Assembly: GCA_029863245.1 (NCBI GenBank)
Contig: JAOTVV010000016.1
Span: forward strand, 914 to 64,913
DNA from: Gemmatimonadota bacterium
GTDB lineage: Bacteria > Gemmatimonadota > Gemmatimonadetes > Gemmatimonadales > GWC2-71-9
Reading direction: 5' to 3'
DNA length: 64,000 nt
A program made the translations under genes and the position numbers. The first letter of the stretch is position 1. Each line of letters begins with the position of its first letter. The notes under the pieces were generated by a model, which was given only the letters and a program-made list of their open reading frames with translations, had not been told where the DNA came from and did no database searches. Below are positions 2 to 34,672 of the stretch, in pieces.

Positions 2-1243
2 GCGGCGACGATCTCCTCGGCAGCCAACCAGACGTTCGTGGTGGGGGACGCCGCGACCACGGCGGCGGTGATCACGGTAACGGACGACGCGGTGGCGCCC
101 ACGATCAACTCGGGGCAGGAGATCCGGATCCGGATTCCGACGGCGTTCCCGATGACGTGGAACACGGCGGTGACGACGGTGACGGTGGGGGGCAGTGCGG
201 CGGCGAAGGTGAAGACGGTACTGAAGAACTACGAGGACGGCGGGAAGACGGCGGTGGTGGACGTGGACGTGAACTTCGTGGCCGGGGATCAGCTGACGAT
301 CACGGGCTTGCAGTTCATGAACTTCACGGCGGCGGCGGCGGCGGACCGGCTGGGGCTGGACGTGACCGACGACCAGGTGGCCGACGCGCTGGACGACAAG
401 ACCAAGGCAATCGGGGCGCCGCAGTTCACGTCGGCGGCCCATCAGAACTTCACGGTGGGCGGGGCGCCGCGGGCGATCAGCCCGATCACGGTGACCGACT
501 ACGCGAGCTTCGGGACGGTGACGGCGGCGCGGGACCTCCGGATCCGGATCCCCACGGGCTTCCCGATGACGTGGGAGACCGGGGACGTGGCGGCGACGCT
601 GGGGGGGAGTGCGGCGGGGAAGGTGTCGCCCACGGTGAGTTATGAGAACGGGGGCCGGACGCTGTGGCTGGACGTGCTGACGGACTTCGTCCCAGGCGAC
701 GTGCTGACGATCAGTGACCTGAGCTACGCCAACTTCACGACGAGCGCGGCGTTGAACCGGCTGGAGCTGGTGCTGGCGGGCGCGGGAGCGGGGACGGCGG
801 CACAGGATCTCAATTCGATTTCGGTGGGGGCGGCCACCATCTCCTCGGCCACGTACCAGACGTTCGTGGTGGGGAGCCCCGCCACGCCCATCAGCCTCAT
901 CACCATCACCGACGACCCGGTGGCACCCAAGGTCACGGCGGGCGGCGAGCTCCGGATCCGGATTCCGGCCGGCTTCAACATGGTCTGGAATACGGCGGTG
1001 ACGACCGTGACGCTGGGGGGGAGTGCGGCGTCGAAGGTGAAGACGACGCTCAAGAACTACGAAGACGGCGGGAAGACGGCGGTAGTGGACGTGGACGTGA
1101 ACTTCGCGGCGGGGGACCAGCTCACGATCTCCGGCTTGCAGTTCATGAACTTCACGGCACCGTCGGCACCGGACCGGCTGGGCCTGGACGTGAACAACGA
1201 CAAGTTCCCGGACGCGTTCGACGACAAGACCAAGACGATCATC
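2..1243 (+). repeat. Three tandem 414-nt (138-aa) coding repeats in A-B-A' order
   Basis: Units at 2-415, 416-829 and 830-1243 all share RIRIP.GFPM.W / GGSAA.KV / YE.GG.T / F..GD.LTI. Units 1 and 3 are much closer to each other than to unit 2. Confidence 0.9.
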
Positions 1244-2005
1244 GCCGGCGGGCTCACGTACGGCGTCGTGGTGACCCCGGACTCGACGGCCGTGACGCAG
1301 CTCCCGACCAACGGGACCAACTACACCACGACCTTTAACGTGAAGAACACCGGGAACACGCCCGACGGGTTCGATCTCGTGGCGACCACCACGCCGGGCA
1401 CCGCGATCACGGTGGTCTCGATCACCGGCCCCGGGGTCACCCCGGGCGGGACGCCGTCCATGGCGGAGCGCGCGGCCCTGGCCCCCGGAGATTCGGTGGT
1501 GGTGACCGTGACCTACTCGGTGGCTGCGGCCGGCGTCGGCACGGTGGATCAGCTGGTCTTCACGGCCCGGTCGCAGGGGAACGCGGCGGTCGAGGACGAC
1601 GGAAAGCTCCTCCTCACCGTTTCCGGTCCGCGGATCACGATCAGCCGTGCCGTGAACCCGAACGGCACGGTGCCTCCCGGTACCGACCTCACGTACACGG
1701 TCACCGTGACCAACAGCGGCAGCGAGGATGCCGTGAACGTCGTCGCGGTCGATTCCCTGGCAGCGGAGTTGGAGTTCAAGGTCGGGAGCGTATCAGACAG
1801 CCTCCCCGCCGGTGTGACCGTCAGTGTGCAGTACTCGGATGATGGGGGCGCGACGTGGGCCTACACGCCCGCCTCGCTCGGCTGCGGTGCCCCGACCGAC
1901 TACGATGGCTGCGTCACCCACATCCGCTTGGCCCTCCAGAACGTCCTGGGCTCGGTGGCCCCCGACAACACCGGCTCCTTCGAATACGTCGCCCGAATCA
2001 AGTAG
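2..2005 (+). CDS. 5'-truncated large repetitive surface protein (putative tip adhesin): three 138-aa beta-rich repeats, an Ig-like domain and a C-terminally incomplete DUF11-like domain
   Basis: Frame is open from base 2 (AATISSAANQTFVVG), so the gene starts before the window. C-terminal PGTDLTYTVTVTNSG...VVAVDSL...FEYVARIK matches the DUF11 pattern. Confidence 0.85.
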   Translation, partial: AATISSAANQTFVVGDAATTAAVITVTDDAVAPTINSGQEIRIRIPTAFPMTWNTAVTTVTVGGSAAAKVKTVLKNYEDGGKTAVVDVDVNFVAGDQLTITGLQFMNFTAAAAADRLGLDVTDDQVADALDDKTKAIGAPQFTSAAHQNFTVGGAPRAISPITVTDYASFGTVTAARDLRIRIPTGFPMTWETGDVAATLGGSAAGKVSPTVSYENGGRTLWLDVLTDFVPGDVLTISDLSYANFTTSAALNRLELVLAGAGAGTAAQDLNSISVGAATISSATYQTFVVGSPATPISLITITDDPVAPKVTAGGELRIRIPAGFNMVWNTAVTTVTLGGSAASKVKTTLKNYEDGGKTAVVDVDVNFAAGDQLTISGLQFMNFTAPSAPDRLGLDVNNDKFPDAFDDKTKTIIAGGLTYGVVVTPDSTAVTQLPTNGTNYTTTFNVKNTGNTPDGFDLVATTTPGTAITVVSITGPGVTPGGTPSMAERAALAPGDSVVVTVTYSVAAAGVGTVDQLVFTARSQGNAAVEDDGKLLLTVSGPRITISRAVNPNGTVPPGTDLTYTVTVTNSGSEDAVNVVAVDSLAAELEFKVGSVSDSLPAGVTVSVQYSDDGGATWAYTPASLGCGAPTDYDGCVTHIRLALQNVLGSVAPDNTGSFEYVARIK

Positions 2006-2032
2006 CGCCGCCGGTCACTCCGTGCCTGCCAC

Positions 2033-2059
2033 GTCACCCCAATGGTTACCTTCAGTAAC
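2033..2059 (+). promoter_or_regulatory. Putative upstream activator sequence GTYAC-N7-GTTAC-N5-GTAAC
   Basis: GTCACcccaatgGTTACcttcaGTAAC. The same geometry recurs at 4308-4334. Confidence 0.65.
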
Positions 2060-2119
2060 ACCGTCACCGGTTCGAACCCGATCGTCATCCCACCAGGATG
2101 TCTCCAACAATATATAGGG

Positions 2120-2130
2120 TAATCACTTAG
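2120..2130. promoter_or_regulatory. IHF-like AT-rich site between the UAS and the sigma54 promoter
   Basis: TAATCACTTAG. Its exact reverse complement is at 4375-4385 in the second promoter. Confidence 0.5.
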
Positions 2131-2156
2131 CCATTACGACCCTCGCCGGCCGGTAA

Positions 2157-2172
2157 CGGCACGCGTCGTGCC
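2157..2172 (+). promoter_or_regulatory. sigma54 (-24/-12) promoter
   Basis: CGGCACGCGTCGTGCC has GG(2158)-N10-GC(2170) and matches TGGCACG-N4-TTGC. Confidence 0.65.
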
Positions 2173-2213
2173 TTTTCTCCGACCCGGACGCAACTCGAAA
2201 TGTGGAGTCTCGC

Positions 2214-2399
2214 ATGGTCTTGAGGTGCCCGCACTGCGAAACGCTCGCGCGATATCTTCGCGGTGACTTCAGCGGCAAGTGGGTGATCTGCCACGTCTGC
2301 GAAGCACCGTTCGCGTGGCGCGAGCACCAGACGCAGCTGGAAGGGGCGAAAACCGTGTGGGGCAGAGCCCGACGCAGCACGGAGGAGACGGAGCGATGA
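2214..2399 (+). CDS. Small zinc-ribbon protein (CPHC...CHVC)
   Basis: GGAG precedes ATG 2214 (alternative GTG 2202). Two CxxC pairs. The stop overlaps the next start (ATGA 2396-2399). Confidence 0.6.
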   Translation: MVLRCPHCETLARYLRGDFSGKWVICHVCEAPFAWREHQTQLEGAKTVWGRARRSTEETER

Positions 2400-2926
2400 A
2401 CACGACGCGATACAGCTGGATCGCCGCGGCACTCGTGGCCGCAACGGTGACGCCCTTGGCCGCGCAGCAGGGCGAGCCCCAGGCCCTCGTCATTTCAGCG
2501 CAGAACCTCATGGCTGGGGACGAGCGGCACCAGGAATTGGCCGATCCTACCGCGCTGCTTCCCGGGGACGTGGTCCAGTACCGGCTGGTGTTCACCAACG
2601 TGAACGCCGTGCCGGTGCGCAACATCGCGCTGAACGACCCGATCCCGTCGGGACTCCGCTACGTCGGCGCCTCGGCCGCAGCCGATCGCGACGACACGGT
2701 GGTCGAGTTCTCGATCGATGGCGGAGTGACCTTCGCCGCCGAGCCGATGATCGAGGAGATGGTGGACGGCAAGCCGGTGATGAAGCCGGCGCCGCCGGAA
2801 CGCTACACGCACGTCCGTTGGACGGTACAGGGCTGGGTGCAACCCGGCGCCACGGTCACGGCCGAGTTTCAAGCCCGGCTGCCGGGCGCCGCAGCCGTCC
2901 CGGACAGTACCGCGAACGCCAAATAG
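2396..2926 (+). CDS. Secreted single DUF11-like domain protein (putative chaperone or assembly factor)
   Basis: RBS GGAGGAG and signal peptide (…TPLAA-QQ). Motifs LLPGDVVQYRLVFTN, LNDPIP, VEFSIDGG, YTHVRW, AEFQARL. Confidence 0.85.
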   Translation: MNTTRYSWIAAALVAATVTPLAAQQGEPQALVISAQNLMAGDERHQELADPTALLPGDVVQYRLVFTNVNAVPVRNIALNDPIPSGLRYVGASAAADRDDTVVEFSIDGGVTFAAEPMIEEMVDGKPVMKPAPPERYTHVRWTVQGWVQPGATVTAEFQARLPGAAAVPDSTANAK

Positions 2927-2967
2927 TCACTGGTCACACGTGACGCAAAAGAGATAGGGAGGAACTC

Positions 2968-4200
2968 ATGCTGTGGAACTCGAACTGGATGACGCGCACC
3001 TTGGCGCTTCTCGCCGTCGCCGCGGTCGCGCTGACCGTTCCGGCCTCGGCGCAGACGCCCGAGGGCACGATCATCACGAATACGGCCACGGTGAATTACG
3101 AAGACACCACCGGGAGGGCCTACACGCCCGCCAGCGCCTCGGTGTCGATCACCGTCGCCTTCAAGGCCGGGCTCCTCACGGTGGCGGCTGACGGCACCGT
3201 GTACCCCGCGTCCCCCAGCAACGCCGACACGATCGCGTTCACGATCAACAACACCGGGAACGGAGTGGACACGGTGCAGGTGACCGAGTCGATGACGGTC
3301 GCTGGGATCATGACCAACATCACATACCGGCTCAACGGTGCTGCCGTCTACCTGTCGCTCGGCGACCTCAACACGGCGCTCGCGTCGCTCCAGCTCGCTG
3401 GCATCACGGGGTCGGCACAGATCCAGGTGATCTATGACGTGCCCGACGGGCAGGGTGGCCAGTCCACCGTGTACAGCCTCACGGCGACGTCCGTCCGAGA
3501 CAACACGATGCAGAGTACCGGCCAGACCACGGTTGCGCCGCCGTCGGCGTACGCCGTCGTCGTGACGCCGGACAGCACCACCCCGGCGGCCGAGCGGCTC
3601 CCGGGTGGCGCCCCGTATCAGTTTACGTTCTACGTGAGGAACGCCGGGAACATCTCCGACACCTACACGCTCGCAGCCACCAACAGCGGCGCCGCGATCG
3701 TCGTCGGGACATTCAGCCCCGCGTCGCCAGTGACCATCGCGTCCGGCGATTCCGTGGCGGTGACGGTGGACTACACGATCAACGAGGTGGCGGCCGGCGC
3801 TACCGATCGGCTGACGCTGACCGCAACGTCGACCACGCAACCGCCGACGGACGACGGGTTCCTCGACATGGTCGTGGTGCGTCCGACGGTTGCGATCGCC
3901 AAGGCGGTGTTCGCGCCCGACTCCCTCACGGCCCTGGCGGGGAACGTGCAGCCGGGGGACATCATCTGGTATCGGGTTGAGGTGCAGAATCCCGCCGGTG
4001 CCAACGCCCGCAACGCCCAGAACGTCGTGGTGAGCGACTCGTTGCCGGCGGAGCTGACGTTTAGCCTGCTGGCTCCGGACACCGGGAGCGACTGGACCCT
4101 GGCCTACAACGCGGGCACGCGATTCGTGACCGCCACCCTCGGGGTGGCTCTCGCTCCGGGCGCGAGCCGTCACTTCTGGATCCAGGCACAAGTGAACTGA
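2968..4200 (+). CDS. Secreted DUF11-family protein, putative major fibre subunit
   Basis: Strong RBS GGGAGGAA and signal peptide (…PASA-Q). N-terminal TPEGTIITNTATVNY segment, two Ig-like domains, and a C-terminal DUF11 domain ending FWIQAQVN. Confidence 0.9.
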   Translation: MLWNSNWMTRTLALLAVAAVALTVPASAQTPEGTIITNTATVNYEDTTGRAYTPASASVSITVAFKAGLLTVAADGTVYPASPSNADTIAFTINNTGNGVDTVQVTESMTVAGIMTNITYRLNGAAVYLSLGDLNTALASLQLAGITGSAQIQVIYDVPDGQGGQSTVYSLTATSVRDNTMQSTGQTTVAPPSAYAVVVTPDSTTPAAERLPGGAPYQFTFYVRNAGNISDTYTLAATNSGAAIVVGTFSPASPVTIASGDSVAVTVDYTINEVAAGATDRLTLTATSTTQPPTDDGFLDMVVVRPTVAIAKAVFAPDSLTALAGNVQPGDIIWYRVEVQNPAGANARNAQNVVVSDSLPAELTFSLLAPDTGSDWTLAYNAGTRFVTATLGVALAPGASRHFWIQAQVN

Positions 4201-4243
4201 CCCGGTCCCCGCTTCGACGGGGCGTACACCAAGTTCCACGGCA

Positions 4244-4275
4244 GAGGCCCCGCGGTCCGTTGACCGCGGGGCCTC
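4244..4275 (+). terminator. 14-bp stem hairpin after the subunit gene (terminator or mRNA stabiliser)
   Basis: GAGGCCCCGCGGTC-cgtt-GACCGCGGGGCCTC, with only a weak U-tract. Confidence 0.65.
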
Positions 4276-4307
4276 GCCGCTTCCGTTAACTCCCCTTCAT
4301 TCAACGG

Positions 4308-4334
4308 GTTACCAATCCGGTTACCATCGGTAAC
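4308..4334 (+). promoter_or_regulatory. Putative upstream activator sequence, second copy
   Basis: GTTACcaatccgGTTACcatcgGTAAC, with the same spacing as 2033-2059. Confidence 0.65.
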
Positions 4335-4424
4335 TCCAGGGCCTCCAGCCTGCAAACGGGGCAAATCCTCTCCGCTAAGTGATTATGCTGTAACAGCTTA
4401 GGTAGCCCGCATGTGAGCGGTGTT

Positions 4425-4440
4425 TGGCATACGACCTGCC
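4425..4440 (+). promoter_or_regulatory. sigma54 (-24/-12) promoter
   Basis: TGGCATACGACCTGCC has GG(4426)-N10-GC(4438). Confidence 0.65.
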
Positions 4441-4472
4441 CTCTGAAGGGTGACGTTGGAGAGCGGGAATCC

Positions 4473-7400
4473 ATGCCACACGCAGGCCGAACAATGCGGA
4501 CCGGTATCCGGCCCGGGAGGGGACTCCTCGGGGCGGTCGCTGTGCTGCTGTGCTGTGGCTTGCCGCTCGAGGCTCAGGGACCCACCGCCGCTGGAACCGA
4601 GATCTCCAACGTCGCCCAGGCCACCTACGTGGCGCCCAACGGTCACACCTTCACCGCCGTCTCCAACGTCCTGGTGGTGACCGTCGCCCAGATGGCCGGC
4701 GTCGACCTCGCGCCCCCACGCACAACCACCGCAAACCCGGGTGGCCGCGTGGTGTTCGCCCACACCGTGACCAACGCGGGCAACGGTACCGACAGCGTAC
4801 GGCTCTCGGCCACATCGGCCGCCGGTTGGCCCACGCTGATCTACCGTGACCTGAACGGTGACGGCGTCCTCGACGCCGGAGAGTCGCAGATCCAGGGGCC
4901 GGTCACGCTCTCCGCGGGTGCCGCGATGGCTCTCCTCGTCGTCGTGGACGTTCCGACCTCGGCGACCGTGCGCGGCACCACCGACTCGGTGACGGTTGTC
5001 GCGGTGAGTGAGTTCGACGGCTCCCGACGCGATGCCTGCGTCGACGTGCTCCAGATCCAGGACGTCGGTGTCCTAGTCACGCTCTCCAAGCTCGTGGACC
5101 GCACCACGGCGACGGCCGGGGACATCCTCACCTACACCGTGAGCTACGCCGCTACCGGGACGAACACTGCTTTGACGCTCGCCATGGCCGACCCGATCCC
5201 GCTCGGGTCGTCGTACGTGGCGGGCTCGCTCGAGTGGAACGGCGCGCCGCTCACCGACGGGACCGGTGACGACGCCGGGACGTTCGATCCGGCAGGGAAC
5301 CGGGTGCTCTTCGGGGTGGGCGACGTTCCGGGAGGACAGAGTGGCGTAGTGGCGTTCCAGGTGCGCATCGACGGCGGCCTTGCCGCGGCGACGCCGGTGG
5401 CCAACAACGCAAGCGCCTCCTACGGGACGGTGGCCGGCACCGACTCGGTTGCCTCGAACACGGTCGTCACGACCATCGTCCTCGCGCAGCTCGGGCTGGA
5501 GAAGGTCCTGGTCGGTCCGACCACGGCGCGAATCGGGGAGCAGATCTCCTACACGCTCGTGTCGGTCAACCGATCGAGCACCACGCCGGCCCGCGATGTG
5601 GTTCTCTCCGACACCCTGCCGCCGGAGCTCGAGTACGTGACGGCCAGTCCTGGGGCGAACGTCCTCGGCCAGGTGGTGTCGTGGACCTTGGGCGAGGTTG
5701 CACCGGGCGACTCCGTCCGCGTCTCGCTCACGGCCCGGGTCTCGAGCCTGGTGCGCGACACGCTCTCGGTGCGGAACCTCGCTGTGCTGGCGGCGACGAA
5801 CGCCCCCACGCAGACGGCCATGTCAGACGGCGTCGACCTCGTGGGACTCCTGCCCAATCAGCTCTCGCTGGAGAAGACCGCCGACGTGCTCGAGGTGGGG
5901 TTGGGTGAGACGGCGCCGTACACTCTGGTGCTCGAGAACACTGGGGACAACGCGCTCTCCGGGATCGTGATCGTTGACACCTTGCCGCTGGGTGGCCGCT
6001 ACGCGGAGGGCAGCGCGATCGGGGCGGACTCGGTGCGGGTCGACGGACGGGTCGTCACGTTCTTCGTCACGGGGCCGTTGGCACCAGGTGCCAAACACAC
6101 GGTCCGCTACACGATGGCCGTCGTGTCGGCCGAGACGCCCGTGCTGGAGAACCGGGCCGTGGCGACCGCCGAGGGCGGGTTCGTCGTGGCGAGCATGCAG
6201 CTGGCCTGGGTCCGCGTGCGGCGGAGCTGGCCCATGGAGACCCGCGCGGTGATCGGCAAGGCGTGGCTCGACGTGAACGACGATGGCCGCCAGGGTGCCG
6301 GCGAGCTTGGGGTGGCCGGTCTCGACGTGTGGACCGACGACGGCGAAGTGGCGACCACGGATGGCGACGGGAAGTTCTCGTTCAGGAACGTGCGGCCCGG
6401 CGGTCATGCCTTCAGGATCGATCCGACCACGGTGCCGGCCGGCTACCGCATCGCAGCGTCGGATCGGATCGTGCCGGTGGACGCGGACGGCTGGACCACC
6501 CCGAACGTGCAGTTCCGGCTCGTGCCCACCACTGGTCGCGTGGAGGGCGCGCGCATCCCGGTGCCGTGGACGGTCGCGGTACGGCACGTTCGCCCCCCGG
6601 CAGACAGCCCACCCCCGACCCTCGCGGTGACGGCGCAGATAACCGACGCCGTCGATTCGACCGAGGCGGCGTCACCGTCGGTCCCGCTGGCCGTCCTGCC
6701 CGTGACCTTCGGCGTGGGGTCGGCGGTGCTCACGTCGGAATCCCACACAGTGCTCGACGACGTGGCGGGACTGCTGGTAGCGAGCCCGGAAGTCGAAGTC
6801 GAGATCGCCGGCCACACCAGCTCGACCGGGCCACGCCTGTTGAATCTGCGGCTCTCGCTCGAGCGGGCAACATCCGTGACCGACTACCTCATCGCGAGTG
6901 GCATCGATCGCTCACGCGTTCGCGTCGAGGCTTACGGGCCCGACAGACCAGCGGCGAGCAACGACACACCCGAGGGCCGGGCCCGGAACCGACGCGTCGA
7001 AATGAACTTGGTGCGGGGGACCAACGCGGCCGCCGCGGCCACGTTCGTGCGCGGCTTGGCAAGTGTGGGGCTTGCCGACAGCGCGCTTGTTCCGTCCGCT
7101 CCGCCCGCGCCGCGCCCGCCCGTCACCGAGTATGCTGTGACGCTCGCCAACCCAACTGGCCGGCCCCTCGACGGCCTGTCGCTGCGATTCGAAACGCCCC
7201 CCGACTCCGCCAGGCTCGTGATCGGGGGCGCGCCGGCGCACGTAGATCCCGCAACGATGGCGCTCCCGCCCATCGCGCCGCGTGCGAACGTTGCGCTCAC
7301 GGTGTGGGCGACCGCGACCGGCGATTCGACCTGGGTCGCACTGCAGGCACCCGGCCGCGCGGGCGAGCGGATGGCCGTGAGCGTGGCCGACCTGCCCGTC

Positions 7401-10400
7401 CCCACCGAAGGCGTGATAGACGTCGCCGTCGAAACAGCCGATCTCCCCGACCCGGCGCTGGTGGGAGCCGGTCGCGCGGTGACGCTGTCGGTCGCGCCAG
7501 CGACTCGCGGGTGGCCCGAGCTCACGCTGCCGCTGCCCAACGGGTGGGAGCCGGTGCCCGGCAGTACCCGCCTCGCCGGTGTGCCCACGCCCGACCCGGC
7601 CGCGCGGGCCGACTCCGGTGGTGGGACCCTGCTGGTCTGGGACTTCGGGAAGCGCGCGATGGGTCCGATCACGGTCGAGATGCGCCCGGCGGCGCATACG
7701 ATGCCGGACGAGTCAGTAACCATCCCCGCACTCCGGAGCGATACAGACCGCCTGGAGGACCGTCGAACGGCATTCCTGTTCGGGCCGTCCGTCGAGATCT
7801 TCGGGCTCCAGGATGGGACGATCACCGCCCGCGATCGCGTCTTCATCGGTGTGAAGGGCGAGGCTGGGCAGCCGGTCACCCTGTACGACGGTGACTCGGT
7901 GCTTGCGCGCGGCAATATCCGGATCGACGGCATTCACGACTTCATCGCCGTTCCGCTCGACCCGGGTCCGCACGTGCTGCGCGTAGCCATGCGCAACACC
8001 TGGAGTCAGGAGCGGTGGGACAGCATCGCCGTGCACGTGAGCGACGTGCCCGCCAGCCTGGTGGGTTCGACAGGCACGCTCACGCTGCGGGCGGATGGCC
8101 AGAGTGTCGAGACCGTCCGGGTCCGGATGCTCGATCGCTGGGGCGTGCCCCTCGTGTTCCCGACGCAGGCCACGGTGACGGTGGACGGCGCCGAGGCGCT
8201 GGGGAGCGACACCGACCCCTCGTCGGTCGGGCTGCAACACCGGACCGACTCGCTCGGCTGGCTCACCGTCCGGATCAAGCCGGGCCACGAGGTGCGTCGC
8301 GGCAGGCTCGCGCTGCGAACGGCCGATGTGACGTACGAACGCCCACTCGAAACGCTGCCTGCCACGCCTCCGTTGATGGTGACCGGTGTGGGCCGAGTGG
8401 GTGTGGGCGCCAGTCCCGACGCGTTCGGTGCGATCACGGCCCGCGGTCGGCTGGATGACCGCACGTCGGTGGTGGTGAGCGTCGACTCCCGGCGCCTCGA
8501 TGCCAACCGCGAGACATTCGGCCGCGACTTCGATCCGTTGGATGAGGCCCAGTACCCCATCCTGGGCGATGCCAGCAGCGTGCGGACCGTGAGCGCGTCG
8601 CAACACGCCGTGGCCGCCCGCATCGAGCGCGGCTTCGACTGGCTCGCCATTGGTGACGTGTCGACCGGCGATTTCGCTGAGGGACTGAGCCTCGCCGCCT
8701 ACAGGCGGGCCCTGTCCGGAGGCATGGCGCGGATTGCCACGGGGCCCGTCTCCTGGCGCGGGTTTGCCAGCGTCACCAGTCAGAGCCTCGAGCAGGAACA
8801 GATCCGCGGCGCCGGCATCTCGGGTCCGTACTCACTGGGCGGCGCGGCGATCCCCGGCACCGAGCAGATCGTGGTCGAGATGCGCGATCGCGAAAACCCG
8901 CAGCGCGTGCTCACTCGACAGATGCTGGTCCGCTTCATCGACTATCAGATCGACTACCAGGTGGGAACGCTCCTGTTCAAGCGACCCGTGCCGGCTGCCG
9001 ACGCGGCCGACAACCCCGTGTTCCTGATGGTGACCTATGAGGGGCGCAGTGGAGGAGACCAGCGCCTCGTGGGTGGCGTTCGCGCCAGCCTCGATGCGCT
9101 GGGTTGGTCGAGGCTCCAGGTCGATTCGCTGCGGCTGGGTGTCACCGCGATCCATGCCGACGAGCCCGGCGGGGCGTTCGACATGACCGGCGTCGACGTG
9201 CGACTCCTCCGGTTCGCCGGGTTCGATCTGGGTGGTGAGATCTCCTACTCGCATGCTCCGGACTCGAGCGGCTTCGCCACGTCGCTCACCGGATCCGTCG
9301 AATTGTTGGGTGGCGCCGCCAAACTGTCGGCGTCGTGGATGAAGATCGGCGACGGCTTCGGGAACCCGTCCAACATCGCGCTCCGGGCCGGCACCGAGGA
9401 ATTCAAGGCTGGCGGCACGTTCCAGGTTGGCGGCACGACGCTCCGCGCGCAGCACGACTTCATGACGTCCACGTCACAGGACGTGAGCCGTCGGCGTACG
9501 ACCCTCGGCGTGGGGCAGCCGGTGGGGAAGACCCTGAGGATCGAGGCGAATCAGACACTCGACAGTTTCGAGAACGGCGCCGACGGTGACCGCTCGCAGG
9601 CGTTGGAGGGGAAGCTCGTGTGGACACCCCTCGACCGGCTCGAGTTGTGGGCCGAGGGGCGGCAGCAGCTGGGGTCGAGCGAGAGCTTGGTGCGGCCGAA
9701 TCACGTCGGGGCAGGGGCGGGCGTCAACGTCACTGATGACCTCCGCGTCGAGCTGCGGCATCGCCGCGTGCTCCTCCCCGCGGACGAGTCGTACGGGGTC
9801 ACCAACATCGGGCTCACGTCGGACGTTGGCTTCGGCACTCGGGCCTGGGGATCCTATCAACTCGCTGGCGGTGCCGGCGCGCAGTACAACGCCGCGATCA
9901 TCGGTCTCAACAACCGGATCACCCTCGGTTCGGCCTGGACGGTGAACTCGATGTTCGAGCGTCGGTTCGGACTGAACGATGCGGAGCTGGGCGACCCGGT
10001 CCGCGCGCTCCCGTTTCTGCAGGACGAAGAGGACTACTGGTCTGCCGGGCTCGGGGTGGAGCTGTTGCCGCAGGGCGCCCCCTACCGCGTGACCGCACGC
10101 GGTGAGTACCGCGACGGCGAGCGGCTGTCGACCCGCCTGTTCACGCTGGCCGGTGATCTCTCGTTGAATCGCTCGCTGGCCGTGCTGTCCCGCCAGGAGC
10201 TGCTCTCCACTGAGCAGACCCTCACTACCGGAACCGAAACCGGTCGGCGCGTCGCGTCCCTCTGGGGGGTAGCGTTCCGGCCTATCGGCAGCGAGGCGGT
10301 GAACGTGCTGACCAAGGTCTCCTGGCTCGACGAGACCAACCCTCGGAACCGGGGCGTGTTGACCAGCCTGGGTCAGGAGCAGCGCCTGATCGGGGCGGCC

Positions 10401-10814
10401 GAGGTGATTTGGACACCGACACGCCGCACCGAGCTGGCGGGCCGCTATGCCATCCGCCGCACCGAGGCCGATCGGCTGCACGAGGACGGCGTCACCCAGC
10501 GGCTCGAGTCCACGGCCGACTACGTGGGCGCGCGCACCAGCGTGATCATCAACCCGTTCCTCACCTTCCGGGCGGATGGACGTCTCCTGATCGAGCGCGC
10601 GAGCGGCACCACCCGCTGGGACGCGGCACCGGCACTCGCCGTTGGGCTGCTCGATCTCCTCGAGGTGGTGGTGGGCTACCGCTTCGGTGACCTACGGGAT
10701 CCGGACTTCTCGGTTCGCGGCGGGCATGGGGCGTTCCTCACACTCGGCACCAAGGTCACGGAAGGGTCTGTCGCGACCGTGGCCGACTTCTGGCGCTCTC
10801 GGTTCGGTAGCTGA
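4473..10814 (+). CDS. Giant outer-membrane protein: subunit-like N-terminus, three DUF11 domains, SdrD-B-like domain, OmpA-like domain, Ig-like domains and a C-terminal beta-barrel
   Basis: Signal peptide, then TAAGTEISNVAQATY. Three K...G..(L/I/A).YT...D.(I/L)P modules. VIGKAWLDVNDDG...TTDGDGKFSF; GHTS...LSLERA...NRRVE; long amphipathic beta-strand C-terminus. Start set at ATG 4473 (RBS, downstream of the promoter). Confidence 0.88.
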   Translation: MPHAGRTMRTGIRPGRGLLGAVAVLLCCGLPLEAQGPTAAGTEISNVAQATYVAPNGHTFTAVSNVLVVTVAQMAGVDLAPPRTTTANPGGRVVFAHTVTNAGNGTDSVRLSATSAAGWPTLIYRDLNGDGVLDAGESQIQGPVTLSAGAAMALLVVVDVPTSATVRGTTDSVTVVAVSEFDGSRRDACVDVLQIQDVGVLVTLSKLVDRTTATAGDILTYTVSYAATGTNTALTLAMADPIPLGSSYVAGSLEWNGAPLTDGTGDDAGTFDPAGNRVLFGVGDVPGGQSGVVAFQVRIDGGLAAATPVANNASASYGTVAGTDSVASNTVVTTIVLAQLGLEKVLVGPTTARIGEQISYTLVSVNRSSTTPARDVVLSDTLPPELEYVTASPGANVLGQVVSWTLGEVAPGDSVRVSLTARVSSLVRDTLSVRNLAVLAATNAPTQTAMSDGVDLVGLLPNQLSLEKTADVLEVGLGETAPYTLVLENTGDNALSGIVIVDTLPLGGRYAEGSAIGADSVRVDGRVVTFFVTGPLAPGAKHTVRYTMAVVSAETPVLENRAVATAEGGFVVASMQLAWVRVRRSWPMETRAVIGKAWLDVNDDGRQGAGELGVAGLDVWTDDGEVATTDGDGKFSFRNVRPGGHAFRIDPTTVPAGYRIAASDRIVPVDADGWTTPNVQFRLVPTTGRVEGARIPVPWTVAVRHVRPPADSPPPTLAVTAQITDAVDSTEAASPSVPLAVLPVTFGVGSAVLTSESHTVLDDVAGLLVASPEVEVEIAGHTSSTGPRLLNLRLSLERATSVTDYLIASGIDRSRVRVEAYGPDRPAASNDTPEGRARNRRVEMNLVRGTNAAAAATFVRGLASVGLADSALVPSAPPAPRPPVTEYAVTLANPTGRPLDGLSLRFETPPDSARLVIGGAPAHVDPATMALPPIAPRANVALTVWATATGDSTWVALQAPGRAGERMAVSVADLPVPTEGVIDVAVETADLPDPALVGAGRAVTLSVAPATRGWPELTLPLPNGWEPVPGSTRLAGVPTPDPAARADSGGGTLLVWDFGKRAMGPITVEMRPAAHTMPDESVTIPALRSDTDRLEDRRTAFLFGPSVEIFGLQDGTITARDRVFIGVKGEAGQPVTLYDGDSVLARGNIRIDGIHDFIAVPLDPGPHVLRVAMRNTWSQERWDSIAVHVSDVPASLVGSTGTLTLRADGQSVETVRVRMLDRWGVPLVFPTQATVTVDGAEALGSDTDPSSVGLQHRTDSLGWLTVRIKPGHEVRRGRLALRTADVTYERPLETLPATPPLMVTGVGRVGVGASPDAFGAITARGRLDDRTSVVVSVDSRRLDANRETFGRDFDPLDEAQYPILGDASSVRTVSASQHAVAARIERGFDWLAIGDVSTGDFAEGLSLAAYRRALSGGMARIATGPVSWRGFASVTSQSLEQEQIRGAGISGPYSLGGAAIPGTEQIVVEMRDRENPQRVLTRQMLVRFIDYQIDYQVGTLLFKRPVPAADAADNPVFLMVTYEGRSGGDQRLVGGVRASLDALGWSRLQVDSLRLGVTAIHADEPGGAFDMTGVDVRLLRFAGFDLGGEISYSHAPDSSGFATSLTGSVELLGGAAKLSASWMKIGDGFGNPSNIALRAGTEEFKAGGTFQVGGTTLRAQHDFMTSTSQDVSRRRTTLGVGQPVGKTLRIEANQTLDSFENGADGDRSQALEGKLVWTPLDRLELWAEGRQQLGSSESLVRPNHVGAGAGVNVTDDLRVELRHRRVLLPADESYGVTNIGLTSDVGFGTRAWGSYQLAGGAGAQYNAAIIGLNNRITLGSAWTVNSMFERRFGLNDAELGDPVRALPFLQDEEDYWSAGLGVELLPQGAPYRVTARGEYRDGERLSTRLFTLAGDLSLNRSLAVLSRQELLSTEQTLTTGTETGRRVASLWGVAFRPIGSEAVNVLTKVSWLDETNPRNRGVLTSLGQEQRLIGAAEVIWTPTRRTELAGRYAIRRTEADRLHEDGVTQRLESTADYVGARTSVIINPFLTFRADGRLLIERASGTTRWDAAPALAVGLLDLLEVVVGYRFGDLRDPDFSVRGGHGAFLTLGTKVTEGSVATVADFWRSRFGS

Positions 10815-29139: not shown

Positions 29140-29155
29140 AGCAAACGGCGTGCCG
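29140..29155 (-). promoter_or_regulatory. sigma54 promoter for the 29054-27517 gene pair
   Basis: Minus strand CGGCACGCCGTTTGCT is near consensus. An AT-rich IHF-like tract lies at 29170-29196. Confidence 0.75.
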
Positions 29156-29361
29156 CGTGTGATGTCCCCTAACTGATTGTTTTACAACCGGTTAGACGGG
29201 ATGTGGGGAGACGAGGTGCGGGCGATGGAGGAACACTGCCGCGTGTGGTGCGAATTGCGACAACGGTGGCGTGCGGCCTACGGCAATTCTCGCGTGTTCA
29301 CACGGTTGTCCGGCGGCGACGCGTCGCCGTCCCGTCCCCGTCGTGGTCGCGCCCCGCGCGA

Positions 29362-30978: not shown

Positions 30979-32421
30979 TTACTGATCCAACCGCTGCAGC
31001 TCCACGCGGCGGTTCTGAGCGCGACCGTCACGCGTGCCGTTGTCGGCCACGGGATTGTCTGGGCCGTACCCCCTCGCCTCGAGCTGGTTGGCCGCCACGC
31101 CCTGCTGCACGAGGTAGGCGACGACCGACTCCGCACGCCGCTGAGAGAGTCCCATGTTGTACGCGCGTGACCCGGTGTTGTCGGTATGCCCCCCCACCTC
31201 GACGCGCACCTCGGGGTTACCCTGCAGGGTCTCCCCGACGCGGGTGAGGATCATCCGTGCCTGCGCCGTGAGCTGCGCGCTGTTCGTCTCGAAGTTGACC
31301 CCCTCCAGTACGATCCGCGTCTCGGCTTCCCGGAAGAGTATCGGGCATCCGGTCTGATCGACCTGGGTGTTGGCGGTGGTGTCCGGACAGCGATCGATGC
31401 CGTTCGGCACACCGTCGTTGTCGCTGTCGCTCGGGCAGCCCTGCGCATCGACCGTCGCGCCGGCCGGGGTGTTGGGGCAGCGGTCCAGGACGTCGGGCAC
31501 ACCGTCCCGATCCGCATCCAGGGCGCAGCCGTTGCCGTCGACCTGGGCGCCGCGCGGCGTGTTGGGACACCGGTCCGCCGTGTCGGGCACGCCGTCGCTG
31601 TCCGCGTCGGGGACGCAACCACTCGCATTGACCGCGGTCCCGCGCGGCGTGTTGGGACACTGGTCCGCCGAGTCACGCACACCGTCGCCGTCCGAGTCGA
31701 GTGGACAGCCTTCGGCGTCAACCCGCTCGCCGGTCGGCGTGTCGGGACACCGATCCTGGAAGTTGGGCACGCCGTCCCCGTCTGCATCGAGGGGGCAGCC
31801 CCGGTTGTCGACCGGCTCGCCGGCCGGCGTTCCCCCGCACGCGTCCCGCTTGTCGCTCACGCCGTCGCCATCGGTATCGGCGGCGCGACTGCCGAGGAGG
31901 ATGCCCACGCCTCCCTGCGCGCCAAAGTTCCAGTTCTTGTCGGCCCCGTTCTCCGGTGACAGCACATAATCAGCGAGCCCCTCGATACGGGCAAACACCA
32001 CGTCGGACAGCCAGAACCGGAAGCCGAACAAACCGTTCACGCCGAAGTCGGTCGCGTCGGTGTTGTCGTAGATGTTGTAGACTCCGCCGGCGCCGATCAG
32101 CATCGAGACGCGATCATGCAGCGGGGCGTTGTACACGAGACGGGCATGGACCGGGATGTACTTGAGGTTGCCTCCGGCGTCCAGCTCCGCCTGCGTATAG
32201 GATCCCGTTGCCTCGAGTTCCAGATTCGGCACGAAGAAGACGCCCAAGCGGCCGCCGAACCCGATGTGGTCTTTGAGCGTCAGGGTGCTGTCGAACCACG
32301 TGTACCGGGCGAACGCGCCCAGCTCCACGGCGCCCGGACGCTGGGCAAACGCGGGCGTCGCCAGTGCTGCCAGACCAACGGCAGTCACCACGGCGCTCCG
32401 TTTCAACCATTTCCTCTGCAT
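30979..32421 (-). CDS. OmpA family protein: beta-barrel, six thrombospondin type-3 repeats and an OmpA peptidoglycan-binding domain
   Basis: AAGGAGG RBS and signal peptide; DxDxDGV.D..D.CP repeats; GHTD...LSQRRA...NRRVE. Confidence 0.93.
31339..31878 (-). repeat. Six 90-nt coding repeats (TSP3 Ca-binding type)
   Basis: 6 x 30 aa: DxDxDGVx(D/N)xxDxC.xTxxxxxV(D/N)xxGC. Confidence 0.92.
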
Positions 32422-32468
32422 CAAGTTGCCTCCTTGGAAGATCGATCGCGAATTCGCCCTGGCGAAGA

Positions 32469-32483
32469 GCAAGGCGTATACCA
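32469..32483 (-). promoter_or_regulatory. sigma54 promoter of the ompA-family gene
   Basis: Minus strand TGGTATACGCCTTGC has GG-N10-GC, with an AT-rich tract directly upstream. Confidence 0.75.
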
Positions 32484-32548
32484 GAATATAAGTCTCTGCG
32501 GCAAAAAGGTTTACAAGGTTGGCACCCGAGCCGGTACCCAGCGGGCGT

Positions 32549-32585
32549 TGTTTCATTCCGGAATCGATCACGTCAGAATGGGACG
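32549..32585. promoter_or_regulatory. Tandem palindromic activator sites (GTYCCR-N3-YGGRAC-like)
   Basis: tGTTTCAttcCGGAATc and cACGTCAgaaTGGGACg, 20 bp apart. Confidence 0.5.
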
Positions 32586-32631
32586 TGAGCACGGGTGACG
32601 GAGCGAGAACGGGCGTCGAAAACACTCCGCG

Positions 32632-34092
<1,461 letters not shown>

Positions 34093-34177
34093 GTGTCGGC
34101 CCGTTCGGTTCGCACAAATGTACTCGCCGGCGCGGGATTTGACAGTCCGGCAAATCTCAGCGATCCGTCCGAAGGCC

Positions 34178-34235
34178 GGGACCGAATCGGAACGACAGCG
34201 GACGGTTTTCGGAACGACCATCCCGTTCTGATACG
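34178..34235. promoter_or_regulatory. Three tandem palindromic activator sites
   Basis: gGGACCGaatCGGAACg (34178), gGACGGTtttCGGAACg (34200), cATCCCGttcTGATACg (34219). Confidence 0.55.
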
Positions 34236-34268
34236 CTCCGGAGCAGCTCGTTCCAGCAAATCCGTCCC

Positions 34269-34284
34269 TGGCCCTGGAGTTGCA
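34269..34284 (+). promoter_or_regulatory. sigma54 promoter upstream of the Hpt-like gene
   Basis: TGGCCCTGGAGTTGCA has GG(34270)-N10-GC(34282). Confidence 0.7.
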
Positions 34285-34351
34285 CGGGGAGCACGCGGCG
34301 CACCCGGTACGACGATCGCGGCGCGCCGTGAACCGAAACGCCGTGACGGTT

Positions 34352-34672
34352 ATGCCCAACGACCCAGTGCCGGAGCACCCACCCGTTCAGATCGAGCGAC
34401 GCATGGCCGATCTGGTCGCGCGGTATCTCGAGCGGTGTCGAGCGGATGTCGCCGCCATGCGGTCGGCCCTGGACGGAGGTACCCTCGCGACCGTCCGCGG
34501 ACTGGGCGACCGGCTGGCCGGGTCGGGTGCGGCTTACGGCTTCGGCGAGATATCTGCCCGAGGCTTTGCCATCGAGCGCGCCGCCCGCGATGCGGACCTG
34601 TTCGCCATCCGAGAGGCGGTCGAGGCCGTCGACCGCTACCTGGCCAGGGTGGTCGTCACCTATCGGGACTGA
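34352..34672 (+). CDS. Stand-alone Hpt-like protein with the phospho-acceptor His replaced by Asp
   Basis: DLVARYLE...VRGLGDRLAGSGAAYGF.EIS..G.AIE.AA aligns to the Hpt motif LGH.LKGSGG.YGF. Start uncertain. Confidence 0.8.
   Translation: MPNDPVPEHPPVQIERRMADLVARYLERCRADVAAMRSALDGGTLATVRGLGDRLAGSGAAYGFGEISARGFAIERAARDADLFAIREAVEAVDRYLARVVVTYRD

Follow-up and report, generated by a model that had tools for sequence, protein, structure and literature searches.

Probable enhancer-dependent sigma-54 promoters in a conserved Gemmatimonadales cell-surface locus, and a palindrome that accompanies sigma-54 promoters across the phylum

The stretch of DNA analysed here, 64,000 nucleotides (nt) in length and referred to as the window, comes from the genome of a Gemmatimonadota bacterium (G000:C23:914-64913; the assembly, G000, comprises 3.68 Mb in 75 contigs at 66% G+C), and close to its left end lies a locus for surface proteins in which an earlier note, made from the sequence alone, had proposed two matching sigma-54 promoters that share an enhancer motif. 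Our analyses indicate that this locus, which is conserved in the Gemmatimonadales, is quite probably driven by three enhancer-dependent sigma-54 promoters, two of them in the window, with an activator encoded alongside and with DNA looping by a protein like the integration host factor (IHF). The third promoter, in addition to the two of the earlier note, was found on contig C43, which joins C23 through an exact 127-nt overlap. The genes of the locus are, in order, those for a giant DUF11 protein, for zinc-ribbon, 176-amino-acid (aa) and 410-aa DUF11 proteins, and for a 2113-aa DUF11/OmpA protein. An architecture of enhancer, bend and -24/-12 promoter is textbook, and so should not surprise a specialist; what the locus offers is a testable model at the level of sequence, running from sensor phosphorelay and activator through three-box site and bending site to three promoters, in a lineage that is widespread in soil and sediment and barely cultured. 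It also provides a likely DNA motif for an uncharacterised regulator of the NtrC/AtoC type, the motif and the regulator gene coming and going together.

The three boxes that had been read in each of the two intergenic regions, at 2033-2059 and 4308-4334, were indeed present there, and the motif that they form is not at background frequency. With up to one mismatch allowed, it matched twice in the window and in none of 100 shuffled versions, and its palindromic part by itself, GTTAC-N5-GTAAC, had 2 matches against 0.23 expected, a count that was reached by 2 of 100 shuffles. The exact motif with a 5-nt spacer between the last two boxes occurred in the entire assembly only at the two window sites. 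A scan of the genome and of homologous loci had been suggested as a check on the motif, and its outcome was favourable: with a spacer of 5 or 6 nt, just three sites with 0-1 mismatch exist in the genome, all of them in the locus and each with a promoter 71-98 nt downstream, and none of the four sites with 2 mismatches was followed by a promoter. The regulon in this genome appears to consist of this locus only. A search for further members produced none that was convincing, a site on C42 with 3 mismatches and a poor -12 element being set aside.

The homologous loci were surveyed with the pattern GTTAC-N7-GTTMC-N5/6-GTAAC in 401 genomes of the order, among them 186 of the bacterium's own family and 187 and 27 of two others. 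The exact motif was found in 18 of the 401, including 17 of the 186 genomes of the own family and none of the 187 or the 27, and the 28 matches compare with 1 for a reversed control pattern. Past each of these motifs, the promoter pattern GG[CT]A[CT]-N6-[TC]GC was sought in a 30-nt span, 71-100 nt downstream, where its genome frequency leads to an expectation of about 0.007 per site; it was present at 26 of the 28 exact sites, or 27 of 29 with window site A included. When up to 2 mismatches were allowed, 54 distinct sites with both an upstream activating sequence (UAS) and a promoter were gathered, and their enhancer consensus is GTTACc-N5-cGTTACC-N3/4-GGTAAC, the last two boxes of which make up the palindrome GTTACC-N3/4-GGTAAC. 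The distance from UAS to GG ranged from 62 to 100 nt over the 54 sites and clustered at about 71-77, 82-89 and 91-100 nt. Twenty-two of the sites precede the zinc-ribbon gene (orthologues L014, L018 and L019-L043) and 22 lie at most 700 nt past the 3' end of an activator orthologue, two sites being shared between these groups; five precede the OmpA-domain gene or its DUF11 N-terminus, two the 176-aa gene and two, both in G003, activator paralogues, and three could not be assigned. A recognisable gene of the locus follows at least 41 of the 54 (22 zn61, 9 upN, 5 p410-like, 3 bigN and 2 p176), and with 8 more sites that stand directly behind an activator orthologue and have no recognisable gene downstream, 49 of the 54 are within the locus. 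The suggestion that a single enhancer-binding protein would co-activate the subunit operon and the OmpA-domain gene is consistent with these comparative data.

As for the predicted promoters, the GG-N10-GC elements at 2158 and 4426 were where they had been placed, and with GG and GC 10 nt apart they fit TGGCAC-N5-TTGCW (2158-2171, cGGCACG-cgtc-gTGCc; 4425-4439, TGGCAT-acgac-cTGCc). The consensus of 27 related promoter sites is GGCAcg.g.CCTGC. In region A, a comparison of the element between G000 (GGCACgcgtcgTGC), G001 (GGCATatctccTGC) and G008 (GGCATacctcgTGC) showed a spacer that has drifted between an unchanged GG and GC. The element also stands just ahead of a gene start: of the 22 sites before the zinc-ribbon gene, 21 have the start of this gene 44-71 nt after GG, and at the other the BLAST match starts at 120 nt. 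The predicted transcription starts would give leaders of 31 nt (A) and 22 nt (B), each with a ribosome-binding site of the GGAG type, and a search for a sigma-70-like promoter in 1900-4600 found none. The genome encodes rpoN (PF04552 match of 214 bits, G000:C18:78306-78782).

The likely activator gene heads the locus and immediately precedes the first promoter. On C43, the 3' end of a gene for a 456-aa protein with the domains Response_reg, Sigma54_activat, AAA_lid_14 and HTH_8 is some 40 nt ahead of the first UAS, and such a gene likewise stands before the first UAS in G001, G007, G008 and G099. The earlier note was correct that the NtrC-like gene at 32632 would not be the source of the activator, but it had looked for the source elsewhere in the genome, whereas this REC-AAA+-HTH_8 gene heads the locus itself in conserved synteny. 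The nearest NCBIfam models to the protein are AtoC and NtrC, both with scores under the cut-offs, and among solved structures the closest to it are chains that carry the deposited name “Transcriptional regulator (NtrC family)”, with 4l4u as the top match. Genes for a single REC protein, an Hpt protein and a GAF-PAS-HisKA-HATPase-REC-REC hybrid kinase are divergent from it. Orthologues, defined by a cut-off of E <= 1e-140, were present in 28 of the 191 genomes of the family sample (27 of 190 without G000), and none of the family's 17 motif-bearing genomes lacks one (E <= 1e-148), 14 of these having come from the family survey and 3 from a further search. Three of four more distant orthologues from metagenome-assembled genomes had a UAS and promoter at the first scan, and the fourth, L115, had them with up to 2 mismatches. 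G024 has a homologous operon and a sigma-54-type promoter, and neither the orthologue nor the motif, as would be expected if motif and activator form a pair.

Between enhancer and promoter, the earlier note had recognised an 11-mer, TAATCACTTAG, which is where it was said to be, at 2120-2130 on the forward strand and inverted at 4375-4385. These are its sole two copies in the window and in the genome; 0.09 would be expected in the window, and no shuffle out of 100 had two. The 11-mer had been taken for a single site in two orientations, but the two copies proved to be opposite arms of a 25-bp palindrome, the proximal arm at A and the distal arm at B. Among the 27 related sites, TAAS-N17-STTA was present between UAS and promoter in strict form at 15 and in relaxed form at 8 more, and in 51 of the 54 sites the best palindrome match starts either -40 to -43 or -49 to -54 from GG. 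Positions that played no part in the alignment criteria are conserved as well (T at position 8 in 41 of 54, A at position 16 in 44 of 54). The consensus, TAAsTCAyT-N7-(c)AA-N4-sTTA, is an imperfect palindrome that lies about 31-46 bp past the enhancer and 15-19 or 24-29 bp before GG.

Rather than being specific to the surface-protein system, the palindrome accompanies sigma-54 promoters in general, both in this genome and in the phylum. Of its 32 strict copies in the genome, seven have their start 40-50 nt ahead of a promoter match, six of these outside the locus, and around the 1751 promoter matches of the genome, 20 of 50 near-matches, which agree at 7 or all of the 8 positions, were concentrated in four 5-nt bins, from -55 to -36. 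In a scan of 71 genomes of the phylum for the palindrome, a gap of 15-29 nt and then the promoter pattern, 96 matches were obtained in 52 genomes, compared with 22 for a control in which the pattern was reversed. By hand count, the gaps of the 96 matches were 15-19 nt in 61, 20-24 nt in 6 and 25-29 nt in 29. One of the 96 came from G096, an unpublished genome, and the claim for the phylum does not depend on it. This palindrome is the more novel by-product of the work, and could help to call sigma-54 promoters phylum-wide, a use that is possibly greater than that of the locus.

The palindrome is probably the site of the single IHF-like protein of the genome, which encodes one IHF-like (G000:C18:205091-205375) and one HU-like protein, both scoring under the equivalog cut-offs. 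With one kind of IHF-like subunit, the protein would be a homodimer, and a homodimer fits a symmetric site. The region from -50 to -20 is about 60% A+T in a genome that is 34% A+T. Neither the 11-mer nor the conserved element conforms to the strict E. coli IHF consensus, and we therefore do not call the palindrome an IHF site by sequence; of that consensus, WATCARNNNNTTR as quoted in PMC3897727, only (C)AA-N4-TTA is conserved over the 54 sites. The proposed order of UAS, architectural site and -24/-12 element fits the comparative data, while the agreement with the E. coli IHF consensus is partial.

In the mechanism that we propose, a phosphorelay of hybrid kinase, Hpt and REC proteins would phosphorylate the NtrC/AtoC-type response regulator, which would then assemble on the three boxes. 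The palindrome would be bound by a DNA-bending protein, probably the single IHF-like one, that would loop the activator onto sigma-54 RNA polymerase at GGCAY-N6-TGC, and ATP hydrolysis would then open the promoter. The three classes of UAS-GG distance, like the two positions of the palindrome, are each about one helical turn apart, steps that would be explained by looping that requires the proteins to be on a given face of the helix. The hairpin at 4244 is likewise as real as had been supposed, the segment 4195-4300 having a folding energy of -52.8 kcal/mol (z -4.8) and none of 200 shuffles being as stable, and it is kept in G001 with one change in the loop. It is a possible terminator or 3'-end stabiliser of the 410-aa transcript. 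With promoter B past the hairpin, the OmpA-domain gene would be transcribed on the same signal even if most of the 410-aa transcripts stopped there, and the idea that this arrangement sets the stoichiometry of 410-aa transcripts to those of the OmpA-domain gene is plausible. Promoter B is present in G001, G099 and G082, while G019, G007 and G024 have a short spacer there and no promoter B. That it might be genus-specific was considered and rejected, since G099, which has it, and G082, which has a similar site, both belong to other genera.

A broader proposal, to which we lean a little less than against it, is that the Gemmatimonadota have a sigma-54 grammar of their own, in which a symmetric 25-bp site for a homodimeric IHF-like protein occurs at one of two positions about a helical turn apart (15-19 or 25-29 bp before GG) and which, in this locus, would combine a dedicated, phosphorelay-fed activator, an enhancer of three half-sites with a flexible spacer, and three DUF11/OmpA promoters. 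If this were true, sequence alone could serve to predict sigma-54 regulons throughout a phylum that is mostly uncultured, and the symmetric consensus would be a new variant of IHF recognition.

A number of observations weigh against reading the locus in terms of sigma-54 promoters, a neighbouring activator and an IHF-like bend. TGGCAY-N6-TGC with up to one mismatch is found 39 times in the window where 32 would be expected, a count no higher than that of 15 out of 100 shuffles; since the -24/-12 pattern alone is at background, the case for the promoters rests on the link to the upstream motif, on context and on conservation. Two of the 29 exact UAS sites have no promoter pattern, one of them beside transfer RNA (tRNA) genes and the other with a degenerate -12 element, and of 12 newly fetched orthologue loci, 9 have UAS and promoter no more than about 320 nt past the stop codon, 2 have no UAS and 1 has a UAS with no promoter pattern. 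A spacer between boxes 2 and 3 of either 5 or 6 nt is unusual for a single rigid dimer, and the loop by which the activator would contact sigma-54 reads GAFTDA instead of GAFTGA, a variant common to three other such activators of the genome. The window palindromes match 5 of the 9 defined positions of the E. coli IHF consensus, and they are symmetric, unlike the E. coli sites. The genomes compared are related and do not constitute independent trials, so that the counts overstate the statistical support. Lastly, the sole contig of an RNA library that is identical to the locus is internal to the 410-aa gene, and is uninformative on starts, strand and intergenic regions.

Some of these points also feed rival explanations. 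We regard it as scarcely credible that the motifs are leftovers of a duplicated intergenic cassette or mobile repeat, with GG-N10-GC there by chance and the stems at 2158-2172 and 4244-4275 acting as terminators. The background frequency of GG-N10-GC-type matches in the window would agree with this, as would the promoter A element of G000, which forms a small hairpin (2158-2172) followed by TTTTCT and was flagged as terminator-like in a terminator scan; the terminator reading of promoter A was rejected, as G001 and G008 retain GG and GC but not the stem. The boxes show no conservation in their flanks across sites, which means that no repeat unit extends past them, and neither the occurrence of the promoter pattern at nearly all of the exact motif sites nor the narrow range of distances from GG to the zinc-ribbon start would be expected of relics. 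A greater, if still small, chance attaches to the sigma-54 promoters being real and the boxes being bound by some other regulator, be it one of about a dozen other activators or a repressor or co-regulator. The genome has many activator paralogues, with 35-45% identity, the motif and the orthologue are on separate contigs in G253 and G409, and in G003 variants of the motif adjoin paralogues of 33-35% identity. Against this stand the orthologue in every motif-bearing genome of a family in which only a minority possess it, the joint absence of orthologue and motif from G024, the first UAS right behind the activator stop codon at 22 of the 54 sites, and the placement of the motif at enhancer distance from GG.

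More serious, though still unlikely, is an alternative that concerns the palindrome alone, namely that it is not of IHF type and consists of a second set of low-affinity half-sites for the activator, or is the site of another factor that is general to sigma-54 promoters. Weak NtrC sites do exist between the enhancer and glnAp2, and the arms of the palindrome read GTAAC...GTTAC in many of the orthologous sites, i.e., they are the pentamers of the UAS boxes, with centres 22 bp apart like those of boxes 1 and 3. The asymmetry of E. coli IHF sites and the partial agreement with their consensus would also fit this reading. The same palindrome, at the same distance, however, precedes at least six other sigma-54-type promoters of this genome that have no GTTAC enhancer, and it is phylum-wide, including families in which the three-box motif was not found, which argues that it is not specific to the activator. 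The high A+T content, as in bending sites, and the symmetric site that a homodimer of the single IHF-like protein would call for are likewise in favour of a bending site.

Several known systems resemble the one proposed here. At the enteric glnAp2 promoter, NtrC has REC, AAA+ and Fis-type HTH domains and recognises short palindromes, the half-sites of which are centred about one helical turn from each other, adjacent sites promoting the formation of oligomers. The system described here is similar in its domain set, its short palindromes and its several adjacent sites, and it differs in the half-site (GCACC in the one, GTTACC in the other) and in its role, which is nitrogen assimilation for NtrC and surface proteins here. 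In CbrB enhancers, the spacing of forward and reverse subsites is F-N14-R. The closest analogue of the present system is found in the Pseudomonas putida CbrB sigma-N promoters (crcZ, crcY and PP2810; PMC6296734), which have the subsites TGTTAC (F) and GTAACA (R), and the resemblance extends to an NtrC-family response regulator, the same GTTAC/GTAAC core, a set of three subsites at each promoter, an IHF site between these and the promoter, to which a candidate corresponds here, and GG-N10-GC. The description of the enhancer motif as new can hence be kept for its arrangement, and not for its half-site, which equals the CbrB subsites. The differences (PMC6296734) are the order F1, R1, R2 with a long spacer as opposed to F-N7-F-N5/6-R here; the flanking T and A of TGTTAC/GTAACA, which are not conserved here; the absence of a derivable tight consensus, in comparison with boxes that are nearly invariant here; and the scope of CbrAB, a global carbon regulator confined to pseudomonads, in contrast to local control of three promoters in one locus. 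Given the different box order and host, the Gemmatimonadales system works alike without being a member of that system.

A second analogue, the orp operons of Desulfovibrio vulgaris (PMC3897727), has in common with this locus a local activator, several synchronised promoters of a gene cluster, and a site between the activator sites and the promoters that is bound by IHF there and is a candidate for such binding here, their activator DVU2106 binding palindromic sites about 130 nt upstream. Those operons are divergent, with IHF sites like WATCARNNNNTTR and several genes for IHF subunits (PMC3897727), whereas here the operons are co-directional, with a symmetric candidate bending site and a single IHF-like gene. 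It is an established theme that genes for structures on the cell surface are under the control of sigma-54 and a local activator (Francke et al. 2011, PMC3162934), and that survey mentions the Gemmatimonadetes once. Full-text literature searches for GTTAC, GTAAC and sigma-54 together returned no description of the motif or the locus, those for Gemmatimonadota and DUF11 found nothing, and those for DUF11 and sigma-54 nothing relevant, the survey by Francke et al. not being among their results.

Table 1. Features of the surface-protein locus, in window coordinates unless contig C43 is named.
Feature	Position	Strand	Remarks
Putative UAS of third promoter, GTTAC-N7-GTTAC-N6-GTAAC	C43 9429-9456		Precedes the first gene
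Predicted third promoter, GGCATgggtccTGC	C43		71 nt past the three-box motif
First, repeat-rich surface-protein gene, 3' part	2-2005	+	Open frame with DUF11 match; start on contig C43 behind the third promoter
Putative UAS of promoter A, GTCAC-N7-GTTAC-N5-GTAAC	2033-2059	+	Same place conserved in G001, G008, G007 and G019
Palindrome A, CAAC-N17-CTTA, AT-rich	2105-2129		Starts 53 nt before GG; 11-mer is the proximal arm
Predicted promoter A, GGCACG-N5-TGC, cGGCACGcgtcgTGCc	2158-2171	+	98 nt past the last box; predicted start near 2183
Gene for 61-aa zinc-ribbon-like protein	2214-2399	+	First gene after promoter A
Gene for 176-aa secreted DUF11-repeat protein	2396-2926	+	
Gene for 410-aa secreted protein	2968-4200	+	About four tandem Ig-like beta-sandwich domains (DUF11); “subunit” of the earlier note
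Perfect 14-bp GC-rich hairpin	4244-4275	+	After the 410-aa gene; no U-rich tail
Putative UAS of promoter B, GTTAC-N7-GTTAC-N5-GTAAC	4308-4334	+	Same site in G001 and G099; similar in G082
Palindrome B, TAAG-N17-CTTA	4376-4400		Starts 50 nt before GG; inverted 11-mer is the distal arm
Predicted promoter B, (T)GGCAT-N6-TGC, TGGCATacgacCTGCc	4426-4439	+	91 nt past the last box; predicted start near 4451
Gene for 2113-aa protein	4473-10814	+	DUF11, SdrD_B and OmpA-like peptidoglycan-binding domain; “anchor” of the earlier note

The locus is divided between two contigs (Table 1), and the join between them is supported by the identity of the last 127 nt of C43 with the first 127 nt of C23, a 127-mer that is unique, by a reading frame that runs through it, and by G001, in which the same genes are all on a single contig. 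The assembly break falls within the repeat-rich first gene, before window position 1, and copies of the repeat were possibly collapsed there, which leaves the true length of this gene uncertain. The zinc-ribbon-like protein begins MVLRCPxC; a weak match to Lar_restr_allev was all that Pfam returned, and NCBIfam gave no match. A structural model of the 410-aa protein (mean predicted local distance difference test score, pLDDT, of 71.8, from an alignment of 5 sequences) has tandem beta-sandwich domains, and its matches in the PDB were generic tandem Ig-like ones only, with template modelling (TM) scores of about 0.2 (integrin legs, adhesin stalks, ciliary Ig-repeat proteins and one pilin). The locus is one for surface proteins, a label of fibre subunit being neither confirmed nor refuted by the modelled fold. 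In a metatranscriptome run from an estuary library, in which 9% of the sampled words were present, one 260-nt contig was 100% identical to 3469-3728, inside the 410-aa gene, and a second, partial piece of low likeness fell in the repeat gene. The identical contig hints weakly at the presence of the organism in the estuary, perhaps along with a transcript of the 410-aa gene.

In region A, the spacers of two related genomes are long and filled with short tandem repeats, the units being such as GCTTCAGTAGCCACGACT and CGATTGCAGGCTTMC in G007 (L016 9617-10515) and GCTGAKAGCTGA in G019 (L015 4035-4700); they separate the first gene from the UAS, or the zinc-ribbon gene from the 176-aa gene. The locus L139 (G003:C75:117000-136000) has three variants of the enhancer motif with GTTCC or GGAAC boxes, each with a sigma-54 promoter pattern 95-99 nt downstream. 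Two of the variants face activator paralogues of 33-35% identity, and the locus may represent a paralogous pair of activator and motif in the same genus.

Elsewhere in the window, another sigma-54-type promoter, GGCACGCCGTTTGC, with the palindrome TAACCGGTTGTAAAACAATCAGTTA 15 nt before it, is found at 29141-29205 on the reverse strand, about 90 nt ahead of the start of a 189-aa gene (29054). It is downstream of a cluster with the NtrC-like gene (32632-34359) and a gene for an OmpA-domain protein (30979-32625) that matches cell-cohesion repeats of the MtsC type. More composites of palindrome and -24/-12 element are located at C14:5616-5671, C18:227342, C46:3420-3476, C46:19399-19454 and C69:72986-73043, and the composites provide a first list of likely sigma-54 promoters in this genome. 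The one at C18:227342 lies just downstream of a gene for an activator that also has the GAFTDA loop.

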